A stretch of DNA of 64,000 nucleotides from an uncultured Chloroflexia bacterium. GTDB taxonomy: Bacteria > Chloroflexota > Limnocylindria > Limnocylindrales > CSP1-4. The DNA is taken from the NCBI GenBank assembly GCA_963746845.1, contig CAVVCZ010000001.1, positions 160,001-224,000 of the forward strand. Direction: 5' to 3'. The notes under the pieces are model-generated. The model did not search any database. It saw only the letters and a program-made list of their open reading frames with translations, and was not told the origin of the DNA. Both the position numbers and the translations under genes were made by a program. Every line of letters starts with the position of its first letter. The first letter of the stretch is position 1. Positions 4,395 to 35,313 of this stretch are shown one piece after another.

Positions 4395-6317
4395 TCAGTT
4401 CGACTGGTAGAAGTTGCCGCGCTCGAGGAGATTGAAGTTCCGGTAATCGTGCTTGATCCCGTAGTGGAGCTGCAGGTAGTACTTGACGATCTCGGTGGCG
4501 GCGTTGCCCTTGGTCCGCGAGTCGTAGGCGAAGGCGAGGACGACCAGGCCCGCGTCCTCGCGGCCGACGGCCTTGAGCCCGCCGGGGTCCGACGCGCTCT
4601 TCGCGGGGTTCTTCGGCACGAACGCGATGAACCACGAGTGGAACGGGAGGCGGCCCCGGCTGTCGCGGAGCCCGAACTCGGCGGTTCCGGACTTGCCGGC
4701 CACGACGATCGGCAGGTCGACCAGGTTGTACGTGTGCCGCACGAGCACGACGTTCCGGGCGGCCTCGCGCATCACCTTCAGGGTGCTCCGCGGCACGTCC
4801 AGCCGGCGGATGAGCTTCGGCTTGAACGGCCGGACGACCGTGCCATCCGGCCCGACGATGTCGTGGACGATCTGCGGCTGGTACAGCTTCCCGCCGTTCG
4901 CGAGGGCCGCGTACGCGTTGATCAGCTGGATCGGGGTGACGACGTCGTAGCCCTGGCCGATCCCGGCCTGGTACGTCTCGCCCGGGAAGATATCGTCGCC
5001 GAACGTTGCCTGCTTCCAGGCGTTCGATGGGACGATCCCGGAGACCTCACCGGGCAGGTCGATCCCGGTCGGCGCCCCGAAGCCGAACTCTTTCGCCCAG
5101 TGGGCCAGTCGGTCGATCCCGAGCATGCCGGCGAGCTGAAAGAAGAAGGTGTCGCTGGAGTGCGCGAACCCGAGCTTGATCGGGATCGGGCCCCAGCCGC
5201 GATGGTTCCACTCCCAGAACTTCGTCTGGCCGAGGAGGAGGTACGGCCGGGTCCGGACGCGAGTCTGCGGCGTGATCTTGTGATCGGTCAGGGCGCCCGT
5301 CCCCGTGACGAGTTTGTACGTCGAGCCCGGCGGGTAGTGGGCCTGGGTGGCGTGGTTCAGCAGCGGCTTGTTCGGGTCCGCGAGGAGCTTCGCATACGCC
5401 TTGCTGCTGATCCCGCGGGCGAACGCGTTGTCGTCGTACGTCGGCAGGCTGACCATCGCGAGGATCTCGCCGGTCTGGGGGTTCTCGACGATCACGACGC
5501 CGCGCTTGAGCCCGGCCGCGCGCATGCCCCACTGGAGGGCCTTCTGGGCGAGCTGTTGCTCCTTCGTGTCGATCGTCAGGTGGAGCGAGTCGCCCGACGT
5601 GGCCTGCGAGACCGTCTGCAAGTCCTGGACCACTCGGCCGGCGGCGTCCTTCTCGACCGTCTTCTCGCCATAGGTGCCCCGGAGCTGCGTCTCGTAGTAC
5701 GCCTCCAGACCCGTCTTCCCGAGGAGGTCATCGGGGAGATAGCCCTTGGCCTTCAGGTCGGCGAGCTGATCGGGTGCGACCGGTCCCGTGTAGCCGAGGA
5801 TCTGCGACACGAGCGGGCCCTCGGGGTACTGGCGGCGCGCCTCGACCGCGACCTCCACACCGGGCAACGCATCACCTGCCTCGGCGAGGAGCCGGGCGGT
5901 CGCGTCGGGCACGTCCGTCGCGACCCTGACCAGGTCGAATCGCGAGCCCGGGTTGCTGTCGATCGCGCCGTTGATGTCCGCTGGGTCCATGTTCAGCAGT
6001 GTCGCCAGCCGCGCCACGACTTCGTCGCGTCGCTCCTCCGGAAGGTCGACCGGCCGGATCTTCACTGCGAACGTCGGCACGTTCGTCACGAGCGCCACGC
6101 CCTTCCGATCGAAGATCAGGCCGCGTGCCGACGGGATCGCCTCGGCCGCGGTCCGGTTCCCTTCGCTGAGGGCCGTGAACTGTCCGCCGTTGACGATCTG
6201 CAGGTAGAACAGCCGTGTCGTGAGGCCGGCGACCGCAAGAATCGCCGCCAGACCGAAGACGAGGAAGCGGCTGCTCGGGCGCGAGTATTCCGTTCGGCCG
6301 TCCACGAACGGGTTCAT
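4395..6317 (-). CDS. mrdA: Penicillin-binding protein 2
   Basis: RGLIFDRKG; SxxK (PGSTYK), SSD and KSGTAE motifs; N-terminal TM; between mreD and rodA. Confidence 0.93.
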   Translation of the reverse strand: MNPFVDGRTEYSRPSSRFLVFGLAAILAVAGLTTRLFYLQIVNGGQFTALSEGNRTAAEAIPSARGLIFDRKGVALVTNVPTFAVKIRPVDLPEERRDEVVARLATLLNMDPADINGAIDSNPGSRFDLVRVATDVPDATARLLAEAGDALPGVEVAVEARRQYPEGPLVSQILGYTGPVAPDQLADLKAKGYLPDDLLGKTGLEAYYETQLRGTYGEKTVEKDAAGRVVQDLQTVSQATSGDSLHLTIDTKEQQLAQKALQWGMRAAGLKRGVVIVENPQTGEILAMVSLPTYDDNAFARGISSKAYAKLLADPNKPLLNHATQAHYPPGSTYKLVTGTGALTDHKITPQTRVRTRPYLLLGQTKFWEWNHRGWGPIPIKLGFAHSSDTFFFQLAGMLGIDRLAHWAKEFGFGAPTGIDLPGEVSGIVPSNAWKQATFGDDIFPGETYQAGIGQGYDVVTPIQLINAYAALANGGKLYQPQIVHDIVGPDGTVVRPFKPKLIRRLDVPRSTLKVMREAARNVVLVRHTYNLVDLPIVVAGKSGTAEFGLRDSRGRLPFHSWFIAFVPKNPAKSASDPGGLKAVGREDAGLVVLAFAYDSRTKGNAATEIVKYYLQLHYGIKHDYRNFNLLERGNFYQSN

Positions 6318-6817
6318 CGCGGCGCGCGCTCCTCTTCATGCACGAACCGGTCGTGGATCGACACGGCGAGCGGGCCGAAGATCGCGGCGACGATCACGTC
6401 ATACAGCACGCTCGGTGCGACGAACCGCAGCGGATCCGTGATGGCCGCTGCGGGACGCAGGATCGAGAACAGGAGGACGAGGGTCATCGAGTACAACAAG
6501 CTGAGGATGGCGGTGGCGATGATGGCGACGATCGGACGGATGCGATGGAGGGGGCGGGCGATCGCCGCGGTCAATCCGACGGCGATGAGCAGGGCGAAGG
6601 CGGTGCTGCCAAGGGGTCGTTGCGAGAGGGTGTCGAGCGCGAGCCCGCCGGCGAACGCCCAGACGAGACCGCTGTCGAGTCCGACGGCGACCGTCCAGAC
6701 GACCGCCAGGACGAAGACGAGATGCGGCTGGGCATCGCCCACCCGGAGATATGGGGTGATGGTCGATTCGACGATGGCAGTCACCGTCGCTGCGATCGCG
6801 GCGACCAGCAAAGTCAT
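6314..6817 (-). CDS. mreD: Rod shape-determining protein MreD
   Basis: From ATG 6817: MTLLVAA...PHLVFVL...WAFAGGLALDTLS..PLG; ATGA overlap with mrdA. Confidence 0.85.
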   Translation of the reverse strand: MTLLVAAIAATVTAIVESTITPYLRVGDAQPHLVFVLAVVWTVAVGLDSGLVWAFAGGLALDTLSQRPLGSTAFALLIAVGLTAAIARPLHRIRPIVAIIATAILSLLYSMTLVLLFSILRPAAAITDPLRFVAPSVLYDVIVAAIFGPLAVSIHDRFVHEEERAPR

Positions 6818-7022
6818 GGACAGTCCGATCCTCGGCGATCCCAATCGCGCCCAGATCGCGCGTGACGTCTGACGATCGGCGGCGGCGGTGACGTTCGGCG
6901 GCAGTATCCCATGCATCGTCCCGAACGGGCAATGGTCGGTGGGGACACGCGCGCACGCAGGCCCGACGGACCGATCTTGCGGCACTCCCGCCGCCGCCCT
7001 CACGGAATCGTCCCGTTGCCGG

Positions 7023-7038
7023 GGTTTCACGTGAAACC
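7023..7038. promoter_or_regulatory. parS: parS centromere site
   Basis: Perfect palindrome GGTTTCACGTGAAACC matching the parS core, 160 bp upstream of parA. Confidence 0.9.
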
Positions 7039-7199
7039 TCGAGGCTCCGCCGCAAGGCGCAAGTGACCGGGAGGCGATGCCCGGTGAACCCGCGGATGAG
7101 CGCCCTGGACGACCATGCCGCGAGGCGCCGAATCGAGGGGCCGAACCGCCCCGGATGCTAGAATAGGTGCTCGTGACAGCTTCTTCGTGGCGATCCTGA

Positions 7200-27199: not shown

Positions 27200-27335
27200 G
27201 GGAACGAAAGGAGGTGATGTGCAGTGATCGACAGTACGCGTAGCTGCACCACCTCGCAGGAGATGGCCGTCTAGTCGGACACCCTGTGGGTGGATGAGCT
27301 TTCGGATGCCGGCCCTTCAGGGCCGGCATTCGTGC
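27200..27335 (+). ncRNA. Putative small structured RNA or micro-peptide mRNA
   Basis: GAAAGGAGGTGAT sequestered in a stem; ORFs MIDSTRSCTTSQEMAV (27224-27274) and MCSDRQYA (27217-27243); 3' hairpin. Confidence 0.5.
27303..27332 (+). terminator. GC-rich hairpin, probable terminator
   Basis: ATGCCGGCCC-TTCA-GGGCCGGCAT, extendable to about 13 bp; weak U tail. Confidence 0.55.
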
Positions 27336-27406
27336 GTCCGGGAGGCGGGACCCGGACGCGCCCACTCCCTCACACTGACCGCAGCCACCTCACGAAGGAA
27401 CGATCC

Positions 27407-27874
27407 GTGGCCGACGAGAAGACGATGGCCCTCAATCGGCGGGCCCGTCACGACTTCAACATCGACGAGACGTTCGAGGCCGGGATCGTCCTGACCGGGA
27501 CGGAGATCAAGTCCATCCGCGCCGGGAAGGTCAACCTGTCGGACGCGTATGCCCGGATCGAGCGCGACGAGGCCTGGCTGGTCGGCGCCCACATCGCCCC
27601 GTTCGAGCAGGCGAACCGCTACAACCACGATCCGAAGCGGGTCCGGAAGCTGCTCCTGCACCGCTCGGAGATCGACGAGCTGCTCGGACGGACGAAGGCG
27701 AAGGGCCAGACGATCGTGCCGCTCCGGCTGTACCTGACCTCGAAGGGGCGCGCCAAGCTGGAGCTGGGTCTCGCGCGAGGCAAACAGCTGCACGACCGTC
27801 GTCGGGACATCGCCGATCGCGACGCGAAGCGCGACATCGCGCGCGAGCTGGCCGACGCGCAACGCGGACGGTAG
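27407..27874 (+). CDS. smpB: SsrA-binding protein
   Basis: NRRARHDF, EAGIVLTGTEIKS, RKLLLHR, GKQLHDRR; GTG 27407 after AAGGA. Confidence 0.96.
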   Translation: MADEKTMALNRRARHDFNIDETFEAGIVLTGTEIKSIRAGKVNLSDAYARIERDEAWLVGAHIAPFEQANRYNHDPKRVRKLLLHRSEIDELLGRTKAKGQTIVPLRLYLTSKGRAKLELGLARGKQLHDRRRDIADRDAKRDIARELADAQRGR

Positions 27875-27893: not shown

Positions 27894-27909
27894 TGCTTCA
27901 CGTGAAACT
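27894..27909. promoter_or_regulatory. parS: Second, degenerate parS site
   Basis: TGCTTCACGTGAAACT, 2 mismatches to TGTTTCACGTGAAACA. Confidence 0.6.
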
Positions 27910-28990
27910 GTCCGGCGCGACCGTCGCCACCCCGCTGCGCCTCGGACCGACGATCCGGGCGGTCGACCTCCACGCCGGCGGCGAGCCCGGCCGGGTCATC
28001 GTCGATGGCGTCGCCGACGTGCCCGGCGCGACGATGTTCGACAAGATGACCTGGCTTGCCGCGAACCGCGACGACCTCCGGCTGCGGATGCTCCGGGAGC
28101 CGCGCGGCTTCCCTGCGGCGAACTGCAACCTCGTCCTGCCGTCGTCGAACCCGGAGGCGGCCGCCGGGTACGTCATCATGGAGCAGGTCGAATACCCGGG
28201 GATGAGCGGGACGAACACGATGTGCGTCGCCACCGCCCTCCTGGAGCTCGGGCTGGTGCCGATGACCGAGCCGGTCACGGAGCTGACGCTCGAGGCGCCG
28301 GCGGGGCTGATCCGGATCCACGCCGGGTGCCGGGATGGCAAGGTCACCGGGGTGACGTTCCGGAACGTGCCGGCCTTCGCGACCCACCTCGACGCGGTCG
28401 TGGAGGTCCCTCATCTCGGGACGGTCACGGTCGACGTCGCCTACGGCGGCATGTTCTACGTCATCGCTTCCGCCGAGGCGTTCGGGCTCCGGCTCACGCC
28501 CGACGAGGGAGCGGACATCGCCCGGATCACCGAGATGATCAAGGCAGCCGCCGCCGATCAGCTGCCGGTGGTCCACCCGGAGCAGCCGGCGTTCGCGGGG
28601 ATCACGATCGGCCAGCTGTCCGGGCCGGCCCACGATCCGGCGAACGCGATGCGGAACGTCGTGACGGTCTCGAGCGGGATGCTCGACTGGGACCGCCCGG
28701 GGACGTGGACGGGCGCGATCGATCGGTCGCCGTGCGGGACGGGAACGTCCGCCAGGATGGCGACTCTCCACGCGCGCGGTCGGCTGGCGATCGGCGAGGA
28801 CTTCCGCCACGAGGGGATCCTTGGGACGGTGTTCACGGGCCGGCTCCTCGAGGAGACGATGGTCGGGGGACGGGGCGCGGTCGTCCCGCAGATCACCGGC
28901 CAGGCGTGGATCACGGGGATCGCCGACTACGTTCTCGACCCGACCGACCCGTTCCCGGACGGCTTCACGATCGGCGACATCTGGGCCTGA
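27902..28990 (+). CDS. Proline racemase / hydroxyproline epimerase superfamily protein (Ser/Cys catalytic pair)
   Basis: HAGGEPGR, EPRG, MSGTNT, DVAYGG, DRSPCGTG. Confidence 0.9.
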   Translation: MKLSGATVATPLRLGPTIRAVDLHAGGEPGRVIVDGVADVPGATMFDKMTWLAANRDDLRLRMLREPRGFPAANCNLVLPSSNPEAAAGYVIMEQVEYPGMSGTNTMCVATALLELGLVPMTEPVTELTLEAPAGLIRIHAGCRDGKVTGVTFRNVPAFATHLDAVVEVPHLGTVTVDVAYGGMFYVIASAEAFGLRLTPDEGADIARITEMIKAAAADQLPVVHPEQPAFAGITIGQLSGPAHDPANAMRNVVTVSSGMLDWDRPGTWTGAIDRSPCGTGTSARMATLHARGRLAIGEDFRHEGILGTVFTGRLLEETMVGGRGAVVPQITGQAWITGIADYVLDPTDPFPDGFTIGDIWA

Positions 28991-28997
28991 CCGCGCC

Positions 28998-30686
28998 TCA
29001 GCGCAGGAAGTAGCGCCGGCTCAGCGGGACCTCGTCGACCGGCTCGATCGCCATCGGGCGTCCATCGAGCGTGACCGCCCCGTCGGTCGGGTCGACCTCG
29101 ACCGGCGCGGCGGCGCGGTTCAGCCACAGGTCGTCCCGGGTCAGCCCGCGGGTCGCGCCGATCGGCAGCACATCGCGCCCGGCCACGGACCGGGCGCGGA
29201 GACCCGAGACCGCCGAGGGTGCCCCGAACGTGACACCGAGCCGGGCGGCGGCGGCAGCTGACCCGCCCCACTCCGGGCGGTAGCGCGTGGGCTCGGCGCG
29301 CTCGACCGTCGCGTTGCCCTCGCCGAGCGGCGCCCACGCCGGATACCCGCTCTTGAGCACGAGCTCCGGCTTGGCACCGAACCATGCGGGCTTCCAGAGG
29401 ACGATGTCGGCGAGCCGGCCCGGCCGCAGCGACCCGACGTGGTCGGCGAGCCCATGCGTGATCGCCGGCTCGATCGTGACCTTCGCGAGATAGCGCAGGA
29501 CCCGCTCGGTGTCGTCCGGGATGCCGTCGCCGCCGACGACCCGTGTCAACGTGCTACCACGCCACCGTGTCATCACGCTGGCAAGCTGAAGCGTGCGGCG
29601 GATGGTCTCGAGGATCCGGCCCATCCCCTGCGAGTCGGAGTTCACGATCTGGATCGCCCCGAGATCGTGGAGCGGCCCCTCCGCCGCCATCGATGCCGGG
29701 TGGATCCGCTCGGCGGCGAGCCGGACATCCGCCGCCACGCCCATCGACCCGCCATGGTTCAGCACGATCATCGCGACGTGCTCGGCCGCCGCGTGCCGCC
29801 CGAACGGGAGCGTCGGCGTCGTCGACGAGCAGATGATGTTCGGCTCGCGGACGAGCCCGATCAGGTCCGGGATGTGCCCGCCGCCCGAGCCCTCCACGTG
29901 GTAGGCGTGGACCGTGCGGCCCGCGATCGCCGCGACCGTGTCCTCGAGCTCCGCGGATTCGTGCAGCCCGTCGGTGTGGAGCGACACGGCGACACCCGCC
30001 GCGGCCGCGAACGACAGCGTCGCGTCGATGATCTCCGGCGTCGCACCGTAGTCCTCGTGGATCTTGAACCCGACGGCGCCCGCCTCGACCAGGGCCGCGA
30101 GATCCGCGGGATGGGTCGACCGCGCGCATGCCTGCAGCCCGACGTTCAGCGGCCAGCCGGCGATCGAGGCGAGCATCCGCTCCATCGCCCACGGCGGCTC
30201 CTCGAACCCCGCGGTGACGAGGGTGGTGACCCCGCCCGACAGGGCCGCCGGCATCAGCTCCGGGCTGATCAGGTGGACGTGGCTGTCGATCGCGCCGGGG
30301 GTGGCGATCAGCCCGTAGGCCATGATCGGGGCGGTGTGCGGCCCGATCTCGAGCTCGATCCCGTCGCTGATCGCCGGGTTCCCGGCCCGCCCGACCCCGA
30401 CGACCCGCCCGTCCTTGATCCCGATGTCCGCCTTGACGATCCCGATCGTCGGATCGATGACCAGCGCGCCGGCGACCACGGCGTCGAGCTCCGACGGCGA
30501 TGCCCGGCCGGTCTGGGTCATCCGGGGTCGGAGCGTCTTGGCATAGCCCCAGATCGGCTCGTCGCCCGGCGCCTGGCGGTCCTCGCCGACCGTGACCCAC
30601 AGGTCGGTGTCACCGAGGCGGACCCGATCACCGGCGGTCGGGCCGTACCGGGCGAGGCGATCTTCCGGCGAGAGCACGCGGCTCAT
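28998..30686 (-). CDS. ureC: Urease alpha-subunit-like amidohydrolase (divergent)
   Basis: YGPTAGDRVRLGDT, IDSHVH, GFKIHEDYG, LHTD, HVEGSGGGH, SDSQGMGR, PLSRRYFL; ATG 30686 overlaps the upstream stop. Confidence 0.85.
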   Translation of the reverse strand: MSRVLSPEDRLARYGPTAGDRVRLGDTDLWVTVGEDRQAPGDEPIWGYAKTLRPRMTQTGRASPSELDAVVAGALVIDPTIGIVKADIGIKDGRVVGVGRAGNPAISDGIELEIGPHTAPIMAYGLIATPGAIDSHVHLISPELMPAALSGGVTTLVTAGFEEPPWAMERMLASIAGWPLNVGLQACARSTHPADLAALVEAGAVGFKIHEDYGATPEIIDATLSFAAAAGVAVSLHTDGLHESAELEDTVAAIAGRTVHAYHVEGSGGGHIPDLIGLVREPNIICSSTTPTLPFGRHAAAEHVAMIVLNHGGSMGVAADVRLAAERIHPASMAAEGPLHDLGAIQIVNSDSQGMGRILETIRRTLQLASVMTRWRGSTLTRVVGGDGIPDDTERVLRYLAKVTIEPAITHGLADHVGSLRPGRLADIVLWKPAWFGAKPELVLKSGYPAWAPLGEGNATVERAEPTRYRPEWGGSAAAAARLGVTFGAPSAVSGLRARSVAGRDVLPIGATRGLTRDDLWLNRAAAPVEVDPTDGAVTLDGRPMAIEPVDEVPLSRRYFLR

Positions 30687-31291
30687 TCCCCGTCTCCAGG
30701 CGCGCGGTCGCCGGCGAACCGCACGATCTCGACCGTCTTCTCCTCGCCCGGCGCCCACCGCTCGGCGTCGCCGGCCGGCAGGTCGAGCCGGAACCCGGCC
30801 GCGGCCACGCGGTCGAAGACCAGCCGCTGGTTCACCCGGTCGAACGGCATGTGCGACGACACCCGGACGACCCGGCGCGACGTGTTGCGCACGGCGAGAG
30901 ACCGGCGCTCGGCCGCGGCGGCGGCAGGCGCCAACGGACCCGGGCCGGCGACGATCGCGCCCGGTCCATCAACCGGCATCGGTCGACCGGCGCCGAGCGG
31001 ATCCACGAGGACCACGAGCCGCGTCCCGTCGCCGACGAGCACCTCCAGGCGGACCTCGTCGACGAGCTCGCGGACGCCGTCGAGCACCTCGTCCGGCCCG
31101 ACCGCCCCGAGTCCGGCGGCCTCGACCGCGTCGAGCCCGGCTCCATCCCGCGCCGCCTCGAGCATCGCGTCGCAGATGATCGCGATCGTCTCGGGCGCGT
31201 TCAGCGGCAGGCCGCGAGCGCGTCGTCGACGGGCGAGCTCGGCGGCCGAGAACAGGAGCAGCCGCTCCTCCTCCCAGGCGGTCAGGCGCAT
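30683..31291 (-). CDS. ureAB: Fused urease gamma/beta subunit-like protein
   Basis: MRLTAWEEERLL..AAELARRR.ARG..LN.PE...DGTRLV (gamma), then VRNT...SH...GFRLDLPAG..RWAPGE (beta). Confidence 0.88.
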   Translation of the reverse strand: MRLTAWEEERLLLFSAAELARRRRARGLPLNAPETIAIICDAMLEAARDGAGLDAVEAAGLGAVGPDEVLDGVRELVDEVRLEVLVGDGTRLVVLVDPLGAGRPMPVDGPGAIVAGPGPLAPAAAAAERRSLAVRNTSRRVVRVSSHMPFDRVNQRLVFDRVAAAGFRLDLPAGDAERWAPGEEKTVEIVRFAGDRAPGDGE

Positions 31292-31344
31292 GCCCGGATC
31301 GTAGACGGTTGCGTGCCGCGGGCAGGGCCTCGCGGAGGAGCCCG

Positions 31345-32604
31345 TCAGTTCGTCGCGACGCGGACCTGGTGACCCGCCGGCGACGCGCTTGCCGGGGCCG
31401 CCGGCGCCGGTGCGACGGCCGGTCGACGTCCGGCCTGGACGAACATCGCAACCCCGATCGCCGAGGTCGCCGCGCAGGCGAGCAGCCCGACGGTGACGTC
31501 GATCAGGCCGATCTCGAGCAGCGCGCTCATCAGGAAGGCGGCCACGATCCCACGGGCGCCGGTGAGCGCGTTCCAGCCGGCCATCGCCGCCGCGCGGGAG
31601 GCGAGCGGCGTCTGATCGCTCACCGCCGCGGCGATCCCGACATCGATCGACGCGCTGCCGATGCCCCCGGCGATCGCCGCGAACCAGAGCACGACGACGC
31701 TCGGGGCGAACGCGTAGGCGACGAGGGACAGCAGGCCGATCGCGCTCCCGAGACGCAGCGACGCAAGCGCGCCGAACCGGTCGGCGACGAGGCCCCAGAG
31801 CGGGAACGCGACGGTGGTCGCGATGGCGGCGAGGATGCCGATCACGCCCACGTCCGACAGGCTCAGGTTCAGCCGGTCGACATGGACGAGCGCGAACAAT
31901 GGCGCGGCAGCGATCAGACCGCCGCCGTAGAACCCCTGGGCGAGGGCGATCCGGGCGAGGAGCGGGCGCTCGCGCAGTGCGCGGATCGACTCCCGGGCGG
32001 AGAACCGCTTCGGCTGGTCGGCGGCGGCTGCCCGAAGGCCGACGTACCCGACGGCGCAGATGACCCCGACGATGCCTGCCACGGCCACGGCCTGCTCGCC
32101 GCCGATCCGGTCGGCCAGGACACCGCCACCGAACGCAGCCAGCGCGCCGGCCGCGGCGCGGCCCATCCCGAGGACCCCGACCACGCGGCCGCGGGAACGG
32201 GCCGGATACATCGCGCCCCACAGACGGAGATGGAACGGGCCTCCGAACGAGAGGCTCAGCCAGAAGACGATCGCGACCGCGACGACGACCGGGGCCGGCG
32301 GAACGACGAAGAGGACGAGGAGCGAGCTTGCACCGAGTCCGCGGAGCAGGGCCAGCTTCGTGGTCGTCCGGGGGCCGAGGCGGCCGGCGAAGGCGCCGAG
32401 GAGGTTGGCCACGAACGGCGCGGCGGCCAGTGCGGACAGCCCGATCGGGCCGAGGCCGCCGCGTCGCGCGACCGTCGGCAGGATCGAGCTGATCAGGGCC
32501 ATCGTCACGCCCATGCCGACGGCCACGACGAGGTCCAGGGCGAGATTCCGCCCGAGGGTCCGCCGGGACGCGGTCGAGAGCAGTGATGGCCGGAGCACGA
32601 ACAC
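31345..32604 (-). CDS. MFS transporter
   Basis: About 12 hydrophobic helices, GxLADRxG motifs; start GTG 32604 or 32598. Confidence 0.88.
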   Translation of the reverse strand: MFVLRPSLLSTASRRTLGRNLALDLVVAVGMGVTMALISSILPTVARRGGLGPIGLSALAAAPFVANLLGAFAGRLGPRTTTKLALLRGLGASSLLVLFVVPPAPVVVAVAIVFWLSLSFGGPFHLRLWGAMYPARSRGRVVGVLGMGRAAAGALAAFGGGVLADRIGGEQAVAVAGIVGVICAVGYVGLRAAAADQPKRFSARESIRALRERPLLARIALAQGFYGGGLIAAAPLFALVHVDRLNLSLSDVGVIGILAAIATTVAFPLWGLVADRFGALASLRLGSAIGLLSLVAYAFAPSVVVLWFAAIAGGIGSASIDVGIAAAVSDQTPLASRAAAMAGWNALTGARGIVAAFLMSALLEIGLIDVTVGLLACAATSAIGVAMFVQAGRRPAVAPAPAAPASASPAGHQVRVATN

Positions 32605-32624
32605 CTCGGGTGCAGCAAGCGACG

Positions 32625-32740
32625 CCCGCTTGGCCTGCGAGGTGAGCTGTCGGGCTCGGCGTGGGTATCGCCGCCGCGAGGTTCGCGGTTCGCCCCAAGG
32701 GATGGGTCCCCCGTCCCCTTCAAGGGAGGTTCGGCCAGGG
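32625..32740 (-). ncRNA. c-di-AMP (ydaO/yuaA) riboswitch
   Basis: Minus strand GCCGAA...GGGGGACCCA..TTGGGGCGAA...CCGAGCCCGACAGCTCACCTCGCAGGC matches the ydaO consensus blocks in order; extended -10 TGcTAGACT at 32751-32743. Confidence 0.88.
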
Positions 32741-32785
32741 CAAGTCTAGCAGTCAGGTCGCGACCGAACCGATGGCCCGATCGTC

Positions 32786-33235
32786 CTATGCGCGGGCGCA
32801 GTCCGCGCAGACGCCGGTCACGGTCACGTGCGACGGGTCGACCACGAATGACCGCTGCGCGCCGAACAGGGCGGCGATCGCGGCCGCCTCAGCCGGCTCG
32901 ATCTGCCACGAGCCGCCGCACGACCGGCAGTGAAGATGACCGTGCTCCTCGATCGGGAGGACGTGGAACTCCTCCCGGCCGTCGACGCCGTGGTGGTGGC
33001 TGAGATAGCCGAGGTCCTCGAGGACGTCGAGGGTCCGATACACGGTCGATGGCGTCGTCGCCGGGTCGATCGCCCGGCAACGCTCGACGAGCTCCGCACC
33101 GGTGACGTGCCCGGAGGTCCGCGACAGGACCTCGACGAGGGTCCGCCGCTGCGGCGTCCAGCGCAGTCCCTGGGCACGGAGCAGATCCCGGACCTGTTCC
33201 CAGCCGTCAGGTCCCGGTCGTCCGGACGTGCCGAT
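32786..33235 (-). CDS. Fur family regulator, Nur-like; no canonical start codon
   Basis: Manual extension gives WEQVRDLLRAQGLRWTPQRR...STVYRTLDVLEDLG.LSHHH...HGHLHCRSC...H....G.CADC; start position uncertain. Confidence 0.8.
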   Translation of the reverse strand: MGTSGRPGPDGWEQVRDLLRAQGLRWTPQRRTLVEVLSRTSGHVTGAELVERCRAIDPATTPSTVYRTLDVLEDLGYLSHHHGVDGREEFHVLPIEEHGHLHCRSCGGSWQIEPAEAAAIAALFGAQRSFVVDPSHVTVTGVCADCARA

Positions 33236-33246
33236 CGGAGTCGACC

Positions 33247-34191
33247 CTAGAACGGGAGGACGGAATCCAGGCTCGGCAGCACTCCGTCGAGCCCGAACAC
33301 GAAGACCGCCCCGACCACGAGGCTGAAGATGCCGGCCACGGCGCCGATCGCGACGTACACGCGCTCACGCGTCTGGCTCGCGACGAACCCGACCGAGCTC
33401 AGGAGGACGATGGCGAAATTCGACATCAGCAGGCCGATGACGAAGGCGAACAGCATGGGAACCCCGAGGCCGGCGCTCGCTGCGCCTCCGACCGCCGCGA
33501 TCAGCAGGACCTGCGTGCCCGTCTCCGCTCCGATCCCGTGGATCATGCCGACGCCGAAGGCCGTCCGCGTGCCGTAGGAGCTCATCTCGAGCGGCTCGAC
33601 GTGTTCGTGGCCGTGCAGCCGGGCCTGCAGCCGTCGCCAGGCGTACCGGACGCCGTCGAAGACGAGCATCCATCGGCTCCGGATCCGGAATGTCTCGCCG
33701 GCGCGCGCGTACCGATACACGGAGTAGAGGACCCAGGCACCGAGCGCCATCAACGTGACGCCGACGACCCGGCCCATGATCGGGTCGACCCAATCGGGCA
33801 GGAGCGCCCCGAACGCCAGTGCGGCCAGCCCGAGGGCGATGACGACGGCGCCGTGACCCAGGGCATACAGCGTCCCGAGACGAACCGCCTCGACCTGCTG
33901 CGACGAGAGCAGGGGTTGCCGGAGGCCGGGTGCCAACCGCTGTGGAGCGAGGGTCGCGGCGCCCGGTCCCACGTCGTGCGCGCGCACTTCGTTGGTCCCG
34001 CCGTGGGCGTGGTGGTCGCCCGCGATCAGACGGTGCTGCTGCTGGTGGGCGGCCTCGGCGGCTCCGGCCGCGGCAGCCGTGCTGGTGATGTCCGTGATCG
34101 CCGCGATGTGATCCCAGTCGATCCCGTGCCGGATCCCGAGGATCAGCCCGGTGAAGAGGACGGCGACGGCAGCTGGATCGAGATCGGACAA
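33247..34191 (-). CDS. NiCoT/HoxN/UreH-like nickel/cobalt transporter
   Basis: LGIRHGIDWDHIAAI signature, LGHG, GMIHGIGAETGTQ, His-rich loops. Confidence 0.85.
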   Translation of the reverse strand: MSDLDPAAVAVLFTGLILGIRHGIDWDHIAAITDITSTAAAAGAAEAAHQQQHRLIAGDHHAHGGTNEVRAHDVGPGAATLAPQRLAPGLRQPLLSSQQVEAVRLGTLYALGHGAVVIALGLAALAFGALLPDWVDPIMGRVVGVTLMALGAWVLYSVYRYARAGETFRIRSRWMLVFDGVRYAWRRLQARLHGHEHVEPLEMSSYGTRTAFGVGMIHGIGAETGTQVLLIAAVGGAASAGLGVPMLFAFVIGLLMSNFAIVLLSSVGFVASQTRERVYVAIGAVAGIFSLVVGAVFVFGLDGVLPSLDSVLPF

Positions 34192-34936: not shown

Positions 34937-35313
34937 GGGGATGTGTGGATTCGACAGGGCCTGGCTACCGGGGAGCGCGAGCCGAGGATGCTGCTCAGGC
35001 CTCGTTAATCAGGCAGCAAAACGAAGTACCTGGCAACCGCCAGTCGACTCTCGCCCTCGCTGCGTAAGCAGCTAGTGTGAGCGTGGAAGCCACCTCGGTC
35101 CCGCGGGTGGTGGAAGCGTCATGCAGCGGGGCTGCGATCCGGGCAAGCGTCGCGTAGCTCGGAGTCAAGCCCGATCTAGGGGCACGTGACTGGACCGGCG
35201 GTGAGCCTGCCGATGGGCGCCCCGCCGGTCGACGACAAAGCATCGGACACGCTCGTAGTGGTCTCCGGCGAAGGGTTCTGGACGGGGAGTTCGACTCTCC
35301 CCCATCTCCACCA
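34937..35313 (+). ncRNA. ssrA: tmRNA, tag (A)GNRQSTLALAA
   Basis: 5' GGGGATG..GGATTCGAC, 3' TTCGACT..CATCTCCACCA with G3-U pair; tag ORF 35032-35067; TACAAT at 34902. Confidence 0.96.

Follow-up and report, generated by a model that had tools for sequence, protein, structure and literature searches.

What reaction is catalysed by a urease-family enzyme whose substrate loop has been cut away and whose genome encodes no recognizable urease helper proteins? The question is raised by a gene pair in a 64,000-nucleotide stretch of DNA (hereafter the window), which corresponds to positions 160,001–224,000 of the forward strand of contig CAVVCZ010000001.1 in assembly GCA_963746845.1, has a G+C content of 70–75% and belongs to a 3.56 Mb genome in 12 contigs that is 92% complete. 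A first-pass annotation of the window, made from its letters alone, described the pair as a divergent urease paralog with intact metal ligands, a remodelled pocket and flap, and no adjacent accessory genes, and suggested either a different substrate or a different maturation route. Our analysis confirms the observation of a divergent urease-family gene pair. It also leads us to favor, tentatively and at a little less than an even chance, a model in which the pair encodes a hydrolase that needs no chaperones and acts on N-carbamoyl amines, N-carbamoylputrescine for example. The two genes are as follows:

28998–30686, minus strand: ureC, a urease alpha-like catalytic subunit of 562 amino acids (aa) and of the loop-deleted type called 'FEEP' here (Pfam Urease_alpha and Amidohydro_1)
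30683–31291, minus strand: ureAB, a fused urease gamma/beta-like subunit of 202 aa (Pfam Urease_gamma, residues 1–98, and Urease_beta, residues 112–196)

The stop codon of ureAB overlaps the start codon of ureC in an ATGA, and all three urease domains (gamma, beta, and alpha with its N-terminal domain and amidohydrolase barrel) score above their Pfam cut-offs; the gamma/beta fusion noticed earlier is thus borne out as two domains within a single protein. The alpha protein aligns over its full length to solved ureases, with UreB of Helicobacter pylori (1e9y, E = 3e-136) as the best match; the PDB matches also include 3qga (E = 6e-132), the iron urease UreA2B2 of Helicobacter mustelae. The canonical nickel ureases UreABC (1e9y of H. 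pylori, 1fwj of Klebsiella aerogenes and 4ubp of Sporosarcina pasteurii; E = 1e-125 to 3e-136) share the gamma, beta and alpha domains, all six metal ligands and the catalytic His, Asp and Arg, but the FEEP type is about 42–50% identical to them, lacks 9–11 residues of a pocket loop, reads NHG where they read CHH, comes without UreDEFG and falls in a separate clade. Family models draw the same line. The alpha protein passes the NCBIfam subfamily model NF009686 ('urease subunit alpha'; 616 against a cut-off of 354) and the gamma domain passes TIGR00193 (89 against 82), whereas the alpha protein falls under every NCBIfam urease equivalog cut-off (TIGR01792, 538 against 680; NF009685, 541 against 907) and the gamma/beta protein falls under that of NF009671 (200.5 against 243). 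The label 'paralog' has to be given up, as a profile search of the 3.56 Mb genome returned a single match to Urease_alpha, which is the gene at 28998–30686 itself.

We compared the active site with that of known ureases through a full-length HMMER alignment to 1e9y and a MAFFT alignment with canonical ureases, using H. pylori residue numbers. The dimetal ligands listed in the first-pass annotation are all present in both alignments (HxH, KIHED, HTD, YHVEG and SDSQ), and the equivalents of His221, Asp223, His322 and Arg338, the catalytic residues of urease (the His at the substrate carbonyl, an Asp, the flap His and an Arg), are all kept. The canonical active-site loop GGGTGPADGTNATT, by contrast, has become TAGFEEPP, and the stretch that holds Ala169 is removed. 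The earlier reading of an altered loop (TAGFEE) was correct, but the change is not a mere substitution: the loop, GGGTGPADGTNAT in the summary form of the canonical sequence, is shortened to TAGFEEPP by 9 residues in the HMMER alignment and by 11 in the MAFFT alignment. In the canonical loop, the backbone carbonyl of Ala169 binds the metal-bound nitrogen of urea. The flap is rebuilt as well, with MVCHHL of canonical ureases reading VLNHGG and the first His alone retained. The loss of the flap Cys that had been reported is therefore real and extends to the second His (CHH to NHG), but it leaves the equivalents of His322 and Arg338 in place. The description of the beta-subunit motif also holds, VRVSSHMPF aligning with IQVGSHYHF in the canonical UreB of a congener.

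These features are properties of a lineage. A search of 1.84 billion representatives, in which full-length matches were aligned, yielded three kinds of urease-alpha relatives: canonical (GGGTGPADG with CHH), ligand-intact with a shortened loop (a 4-residue or an 11-residue gap), and ligand-less. In a 25-row tree the shortened-loop sequences, which make up 12 of the rows, are monophyletic and separate from canonical ureases, with a support of 100 in the Shimodaira–Hasegawa-like approximate likelihood ratio test (SH-aLRT). The window's enzyme lies in this loop-deleted clade and does not group with canonical ureases, which answers the phylogenetic check proposed with the first-pass annotation; it groups (support 100) with a Limnocylindria sequence at 86% identity and with one at 60% identity from a cluster that contains a Euzebyaceae record, next to P0125. 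A 57-row tree divides the FEEP clade into three branches: Euzebyaceae-like, a large metagenomic branch, and Limnocylindria. Among 101 near-full-length members of the clade, the ligand motifs are kept in 99–101, the flap His-Gly is invariant, and the loop is present in all 101 with minor variants, reading xAGF, then E (rarely D, T, Q or N), then EPP, with an invariant second Glu. Judged by its sequence, then, the enzyme is part of a lineage of its own that has lost the loop closing the urea pocket, has F-E-E-P in its place and has a rebuilt mobile flap.

The lineage is abundant in soil Limnocylindria and Actinomycetota. Species-representative genomes contain 570 relatives, and 6996 metagenome proteins match at E ≤ 0.001 among the 8000 candidates sharing most words, the best 120 of them being 80–90% identical; sequences 67–90% identical to the alpha protein occur in many genera and in thousands of metagenome proteins. 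Pairwise ratios of nonsynonymous to synonymous substitution rates (dN/dS) against seven relatives are 0.14–0.23 for alpha and 0.23–0.35 for gamma/beta; the genes are intact and under purifying selection.

The reported absence of ureD, ureE, ureF and ureG from the window is borne out, and a genome-wide search came back equally empty-handed. The 3.56 Mb, 92%-complete genome has no match to UreD, UreG or UreE_C and none to HypA above the cut-off; for UreF it has just one 20.6-bit stretch with two stops, and the cobW family gives a single 31.5-bit match. The same pattern extends to relatives. Within the genus, the divergent gene was found in 22 of 24 genomes searched and ureG in 4 of 43 (both samples include one unpublished genome, G010). 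In a class-wide sample of 401 genomes, 64 have a match at E ≤ 1e-50, of which 6 have a canonical-type match (45–50% identity) only; once these are set aside, the divergent type is carried by 58 genomes, which all belong to a single family. Of the 401 genomes, 7 have a ureG match; G018 is the sole carrier among them, and the other 57 carriers have none. Where congeners have ureFG, a second ureABC, of the canonical type, lies beside those genes. In G018, ureG sits within a separate canonical ureA-ureB-ureC-ureF-ureG operon and the divergent pair is kept too, while G003 and G005 each combine a ureG match with another urease match at 41–49% identity. The canonical operon of G018 (L013, G018:C21:26000-44000) adjoins an ammonium transporter and an amidase gene. 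We dropped the idea of an operon link to carbamate kinase, whose gene is never adjacent to a FEEP-type gene among the matches listed for the class sample; it does lie 5–8 kb from canonical ureC in G018, G041 and G416.

A hint to the substrate comes from sister branches. Scanning metagenome contigs with the Euzebyaceae-type protein gave 48 loci; the gene is nearly full-length in 27 of them, and all 27 have TAGFEEP. In 16 of the 48 loci, which belong to the large metagenomic branch (its one named relative is labelled Actinomycetota), ureAB and ureC are separated by an inserted gene of 336–372 aa that has their orientation and overlaps its neighbors at the ends. The inserted gene belongs to the PAD_porph family (344–349 bits), and its nearest model is agmatine deiminase (TIGR03380, 314–321 against a cut-off of 382). 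Enzymes of the deiminase superfamily convert guanidino groups into ureido groups and release no urea. One would therefore expect a hydrolase encoded around such an enzyme to cleave the ureido product, and from agmatine this product is N-carbamoylputrescine. There is a precedent for this kind of argument, in that AguY, a non-homologous N-carbamoylputrescine amidohydrolase, was recently found through its adjacency to aguA and then proven (PMC12283126). The reaction proposed here, from ureido amine to amine, CO2 and NH3, is the same as that of AguB (nitrilase fold) and AguY (amidase-signature fold), but the folds are unrelated to that of the FEEP type, whose mechanism would be metal-dependent; and although adjacency to an agmatine-deiminase gene is like evidence in both cases, for the FEEP type it is found in the sister lineage only. 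We found no paper linking N-carbamoylputrescine to a urease-family hydrolase, and PMC12283126 makes no mention of urease.

The Euzebyaceae-like branch offers a different context. In 3 loci the pair stands between aldehyde dehydrogenase/IclR genes and a gene for L-lysine 6-transaminase (TIGR03251, 683 against a cut-off of 521). Near Euzebyaceae-type genes, one locus also encodes a 989-aa fusion of phosphotransferase (APH), Peptidase_M23 and class-III aminotransferase domains (L100:2360-5329, minus strand). Taken together, these results lend some support to both halves of the earlier suggestion, the separate clade and the sister operons to a different substrate and the lack of helpers to a different maturation route.

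Our preferred model, a hydrolase of N-carbamoyl amines, would work as follows. The enzyme has the two-metal hydrolytic centre with its carbamylated lysine and the catalytic His, Asp and Arg in common with urease. The opened pocket would accept a mono-substituted urea, such as N-carbamoylputrescine or a citrulline- or homocitrulline-like compound, and the acidic Glu pair of F-E-E-P would hold the distal ammonium group of the substrate. Hydrolysis would release the free amine together with CO2 and NH3, and the metal centre would assemble without UreD, UreE, UreF or UreG. Finally, the genes would probably be read through from a riboswitch-led transporter gene of the major facilitator superfamily (MFS), with expression rising at low cyclic di-AMP (c-di-AMP). 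This last step concerns two features directly upstream of the pair:

31345–32604, minus strand: MFS transporter gene (Pfam MFS_1), its stop codon 53 nucleotides before ureAB
32618–32746, minus strand: c-di-AMP riboswitch aptamer, ydaO/yuaA type (RF00379 of Rfam at 68 bits, gathering score 38, E = 1e-13)

The aptamer match covers the full model (positions 1–134), ends 14 nucleotides before the MFS start codon and is the sole RF00379 match in the genome, which also encodes a diadenylate cyclase (DAC domain). Within the window, this aptamer and a transfer-messenger RNA (tmRNA) gene alone reach the Rfam threshold, and no other riboswitch, for example one for guanidine, lies near the genes. All 14 related loci given to Rfam carry RF00379 (58–76 bits), and 3 of 30 pairs predicted by RNAalifold from 15 close relatives show a compensatory change, the pairs being those of a computed fold and not of the Rfam structure. 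We then considered 80 related loci, drawn from the 570 relatives in species-representative genomes, 59 of which have at least 2.3 kb of upstream sequence. An nhmmer search found the riboswitch in 41 of the 80, in the order riboswitch-MFS-ureC in 40; of the 59 loci with room, 40 have an MFS gene upstream on the same strand and 38 have the riboswitch, the MFS gene always being present with it. Family-wide, the riboswitch occurs in 26 of 141 genomes, usually once (the count includes the unpublished G468), and in the 9 genomes common to the class and family samples that have both features, it lies about 2 kb from the enzyme gene. None of the sister loci has the MFS gene, and the 10 that were run against Rfam all lack the riboswitch.

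Read-through from the MFS gene into ureAB-ureC is plausible in view of the short gap and the lack of a terminator-like site between them. Among 43 same-strand cases, 31 have the MFS gene and ureAB –3 to 146 nucleotides apart; nothing resembling a terminator or a promoter was detected between the two genes, and a terminator scan of 28800–33300 was empty, such scans being weak in G+C-rich DNA. In the remaining 12 of the 43 cases the distance is 740–1313 nucleotides, which leaves space for an extra gene. Seven loci (L050:1743-2528, L054:7647-8432, L062:7641-8432 and four more) encode an Ala-rich protein of about 260 aa there, with a transmembrane helix at either end and no Pfam family (gene cluster 19). 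Another candidate from the same interval, gene cluster 31, was set aside as it looks like spurious open reading frames.

Several observations nonetheless weigh against wiring the enzyme to the riboswitch. Neither the MFS gene nor the riboswitch is present in 19 of the 59 loci with room, and the enzyme occurs without the riboswitch in genera g3, g8 and g17. Conversely, in 6 of 6 further genomes that lack urease-like genes at the site, the riboswitch is followed by an MFS homologue of 37–83% identity; since the riboswitch and MFS gene occur as a pair without the enzyme genes, the riboswitch's own gene is the MFS gene. In L034 (~5862-7169), riboswitch and MFS gene are inverted and diverge from ureAB, a natural uncoupling of the two modules. 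The unit is, moreover, part of a block conserved across the family that runs from the tmRNA gene through MFS, ureAB, ureC and a proline-racemase-family gene on the opposite strand to SmpB, an S41 peptidase, FtsX and FtsE, and the last four of these, which flank the unit, keep their order. The riboswitch could accordingly govern the MFS gene alone, with ureAB-ureC expressed from a promoter of their own and placed there by synteny of the ssrA-to-ftsE block. We consider this nearly an even prospect; the shared strand, the 53-nucleotide gap in the window and the similarly short gaps elsewhere, and the empty promoter and terminator scan argue against it. In one locus of genus g24 (L155, G362:C15:2816500-2824500), the place of urease-like genes behind the riboswitch-led MFS gene is taken by another MFS gene and a gene for a CorA-type cation transporter, an arrangement that fits a cation or osmotic role of the riboswitch module.

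Known targets of c-di-AMP riboswitches are transporters for K+, amino acids and osmolytes, and genes for the cell wall and osmotic shock (PMC7266159). A full-length RF00379 aptamer before a transporter gene is thus a likeness to established regulons, but in print we came across no association of it with an MFS gene and urease-family genes behind it, and no paper that connects urease genes with a c-di-AMP riboswitch, although the original riboswitch papers may list such a case.

A different view of the enzyme itself is that it is a true urease (EC 3.5.1.5) that matures without helpers, uses urea from the cell's own agmatinase or from soil, and has a loop and flap that alter kinetics or the choice of metal but leave the substrate as it is. 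We regard this as a serious possibility, well short of even. All residues for urease chemistry are present, the alpha protein clears the NF009686 cut-off, and accessory-free active ureases exist, namely Bacillus subtilis UreABC and the H. mustelae iron urease UreA2B2. Both of these also have structural genes without adjacent accessory genes, and the two-gene layout of a fused small subunit and alpha is likewise that of Helicobacter; both enzymes hydrolyse urea, however, whereas the FEEP-type enzyme, a putative hydrolase, stands in the loop-deleted clade. Fused ureAB with ureC and no accessory genes has been noted before (PMC2492869) and also appears in a listing (PMC3293853), and our literature searches brought up no biochemical test of such genes. 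We found no biochemical study of the FEEP clade in the literature.

The metabolism of the host adds to this case, and here the evidence counts against a ureido-amine substrate. The genome encodes an agmatinase (TIGR01230, 188 against a cut-off of 174) and has no match to PAD_porph, the agmatine-deiminase family, so that N-carbamoylputrescine would need to be imported. It has no urea carboxylase. The cell makes urea and citrulline without another known urea-splitting route, which keeps the plain-urease reading alive; with agmatinase present and urea carboxylase and any other urease missing, a plain urease would fill an obvious gap. The deiminase evidence is also narrower than its count of loci implies. 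The inserted deiminases are 83–92% identical to each other, so the deiminase-linked loci represent one lineage and are not independent, and with about 60% identity to the window's enzyme that lineage may have a different substrate. The congener G041 has a canonical urease with ureG (its sole match, 46% identical) but not the divergent type, and the syntenic site there lacks the two genes, a pattern that fits redundancy between the two types. An AlphaFold2 model built on an 8-sequence alignment, with a mean predicted local distance difference test score of 38.8, is too low in confidence to place the two Glu residues.

On the other side, an enzyme acting on urea would have to do so with the segment that carries the Ala169 carbonyl deleted, and it falls below all urease equivalog cut-offs. 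The genome has no urea transporter UrtA (best 70 bits against a cut-off of 493). G018 keeps the divergent pair beside a complete canonical operon, G003 and G005 combine a second match with ureG, and in the sister lineage it is a ureido-producing deiminase that is inserted between the subunit genes. On another contig of the window's genome (G000:C2:27513-30660), genes for arginine deiminase (413 bits) and carbamate kinase (392 bits) lie about 1 kb apart, with space between them for a carbamoyltransferase; this locus is probably an arginine deiminase pathway.

It is improbable that the substrate is a different small molecule, an amide, ureido or guanidino compound with no relation to polyamines; a ureido acid, or a soil compound imported by the MFS protein, would be examples. 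The MFS gene is the one recurrent same-strand neighbor in Limnocylindria (the 40 of 59 loci above), and the contexts of the enzyme vary by branch (deiminase, lysine transaminase, none), which suggests a broad or shifting specificity. Yet comparisons with NCBIfam, PDB and Atlas assign no specific substrate to the MFS protein, MFS gene and riboswitch occur independently of the enzyme, and c-di-AMP riboswitches are known from the transporter and cell-wall genes named above (PMC7266159), not from catabolic importers. Least probable by far is a dead or decaying urease remnant left after the loss of helpers: the genome has no accessory genes, split or stop-bearing copies exist in six genomes, and ligand-less urease-like proteins occur among the representatives, but the near-universal ligand motifs, a dN/dS well under 1 and the spread of 67–90%-identical sequences all speak against decay, and the split copies, found mostly in assemblies of at most 10 contigs, may be indel errors. 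The FEEP-type alpha genes that are split into two frames or contain TGA stops lie at G116:C1:2150735-2152421, G207:C3:559452-561093, G373:C2:393113-394637, G145:C67:862-2619, G243:C10:669435-671034 and G298:C2:1918544-1919896; they may reflect recurrent decay or assembly indel errors.

The full form of our model, in which the FEEP clade would represent a new function on the urease scaffold, a chaperone-independent, metal-dependent ureido-amine amidohydrolase (for N-carbamoylputrescine, citrulline or homocitrulline) that in Limnocylindria is wired through riboswitch and MFS transporter to K+ and osmotic signalling, joins the enzymatic and regulatory parts; we put it at rather unlikely.

The identity of the substrate has practical consequences, as databases and pipelines label thousands of these soil proteins 'urease subunit alpha'. 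If they are not urea hydrolases, the ureolytic potential of soil Chloroflexota and Actinomycetota is being overestimated from metagenomes. If they are, they constitute a widespread natural urease that does not need UreDFG and does without a pocket loop so far held to be invariant, and a helper-free urease, if true, would bear on how the carbamylated dinuclear site is assembled and on the design of urease inhibitors. The deiminase gene between the subunit genes provides a concrete and cheap substrate hypothesis. If the ureido-amine reading is correct, it would provide the deiminase route, which leads from guanidino compounds to free amines, with another non-homologous final step. The riboswitch, if it does control the enzyme, would be a possible new output of c-di-AMP signalling in a phylum where this is unstudied, and polyamine or ammonium release would be switched on as c-di-AMP falls.

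The remaining neighbors in the window are the following:

27290–27874, plus strand: smpB
27902–28990, plus strand: proline-racemase-family gene (nearest model trans-3-hydroxy-L-proline dehydratase, 363 bits against a cut-off of 550)
32786–33232, minus strand: Fur-family regulator gene (Pfam FUR, 66.5 bits over an extended frame of 148 codons)
33247–34191, minus strand: gene for a membrane protein of 314 aa that bears an RHGIDWDH motif and a His-rich loop and distantly resembles NiCoT/NicT
34937–35313, plus strand: tmRNA gene (RF00023, 116 bits)

The riboswitch-MFS-ureAB-ureC unit is thus flanked by both partners of trans-translation, tmRNA and smpB, and the tmRNA gene recurs near the unit in 8 of 14 related loci. 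The proline-racemase-family gene converges on ureC across an 8-nucleotide gap and is found in the same place in 35 of the 80 related loci. In the deep Limnocylindria genus g17, the neighbors are carAB, Ku and a chromate transporter gene, which are uninformative.

The Fur-family and NiCoT-like genes are lineage-limited neighbors whose membership in the unit is uncertain, as they occur near it in 7 and 2 of 46 related loci, respectively. A nickel link through these genes was dropped as a general feature on account of those counts and the weak NiCoT assignment. The Fur gene has no ATG, GTG or TTG start upstream of 33043; it either uses a rare start codon, an in-frame ATC being present upstream, or carries a sequence error. 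The protein at 33247–34191 matches NicT (E = 2e-7; 30.5 bits against a cut-off of 450), TIGR00802 (E = 5e-5) and Pfam NicO (E = 0.035) weakly and may represent a distant metal-transporter family; it is conserved at 84–89% identity in three related loci (L015, L053 and L060).

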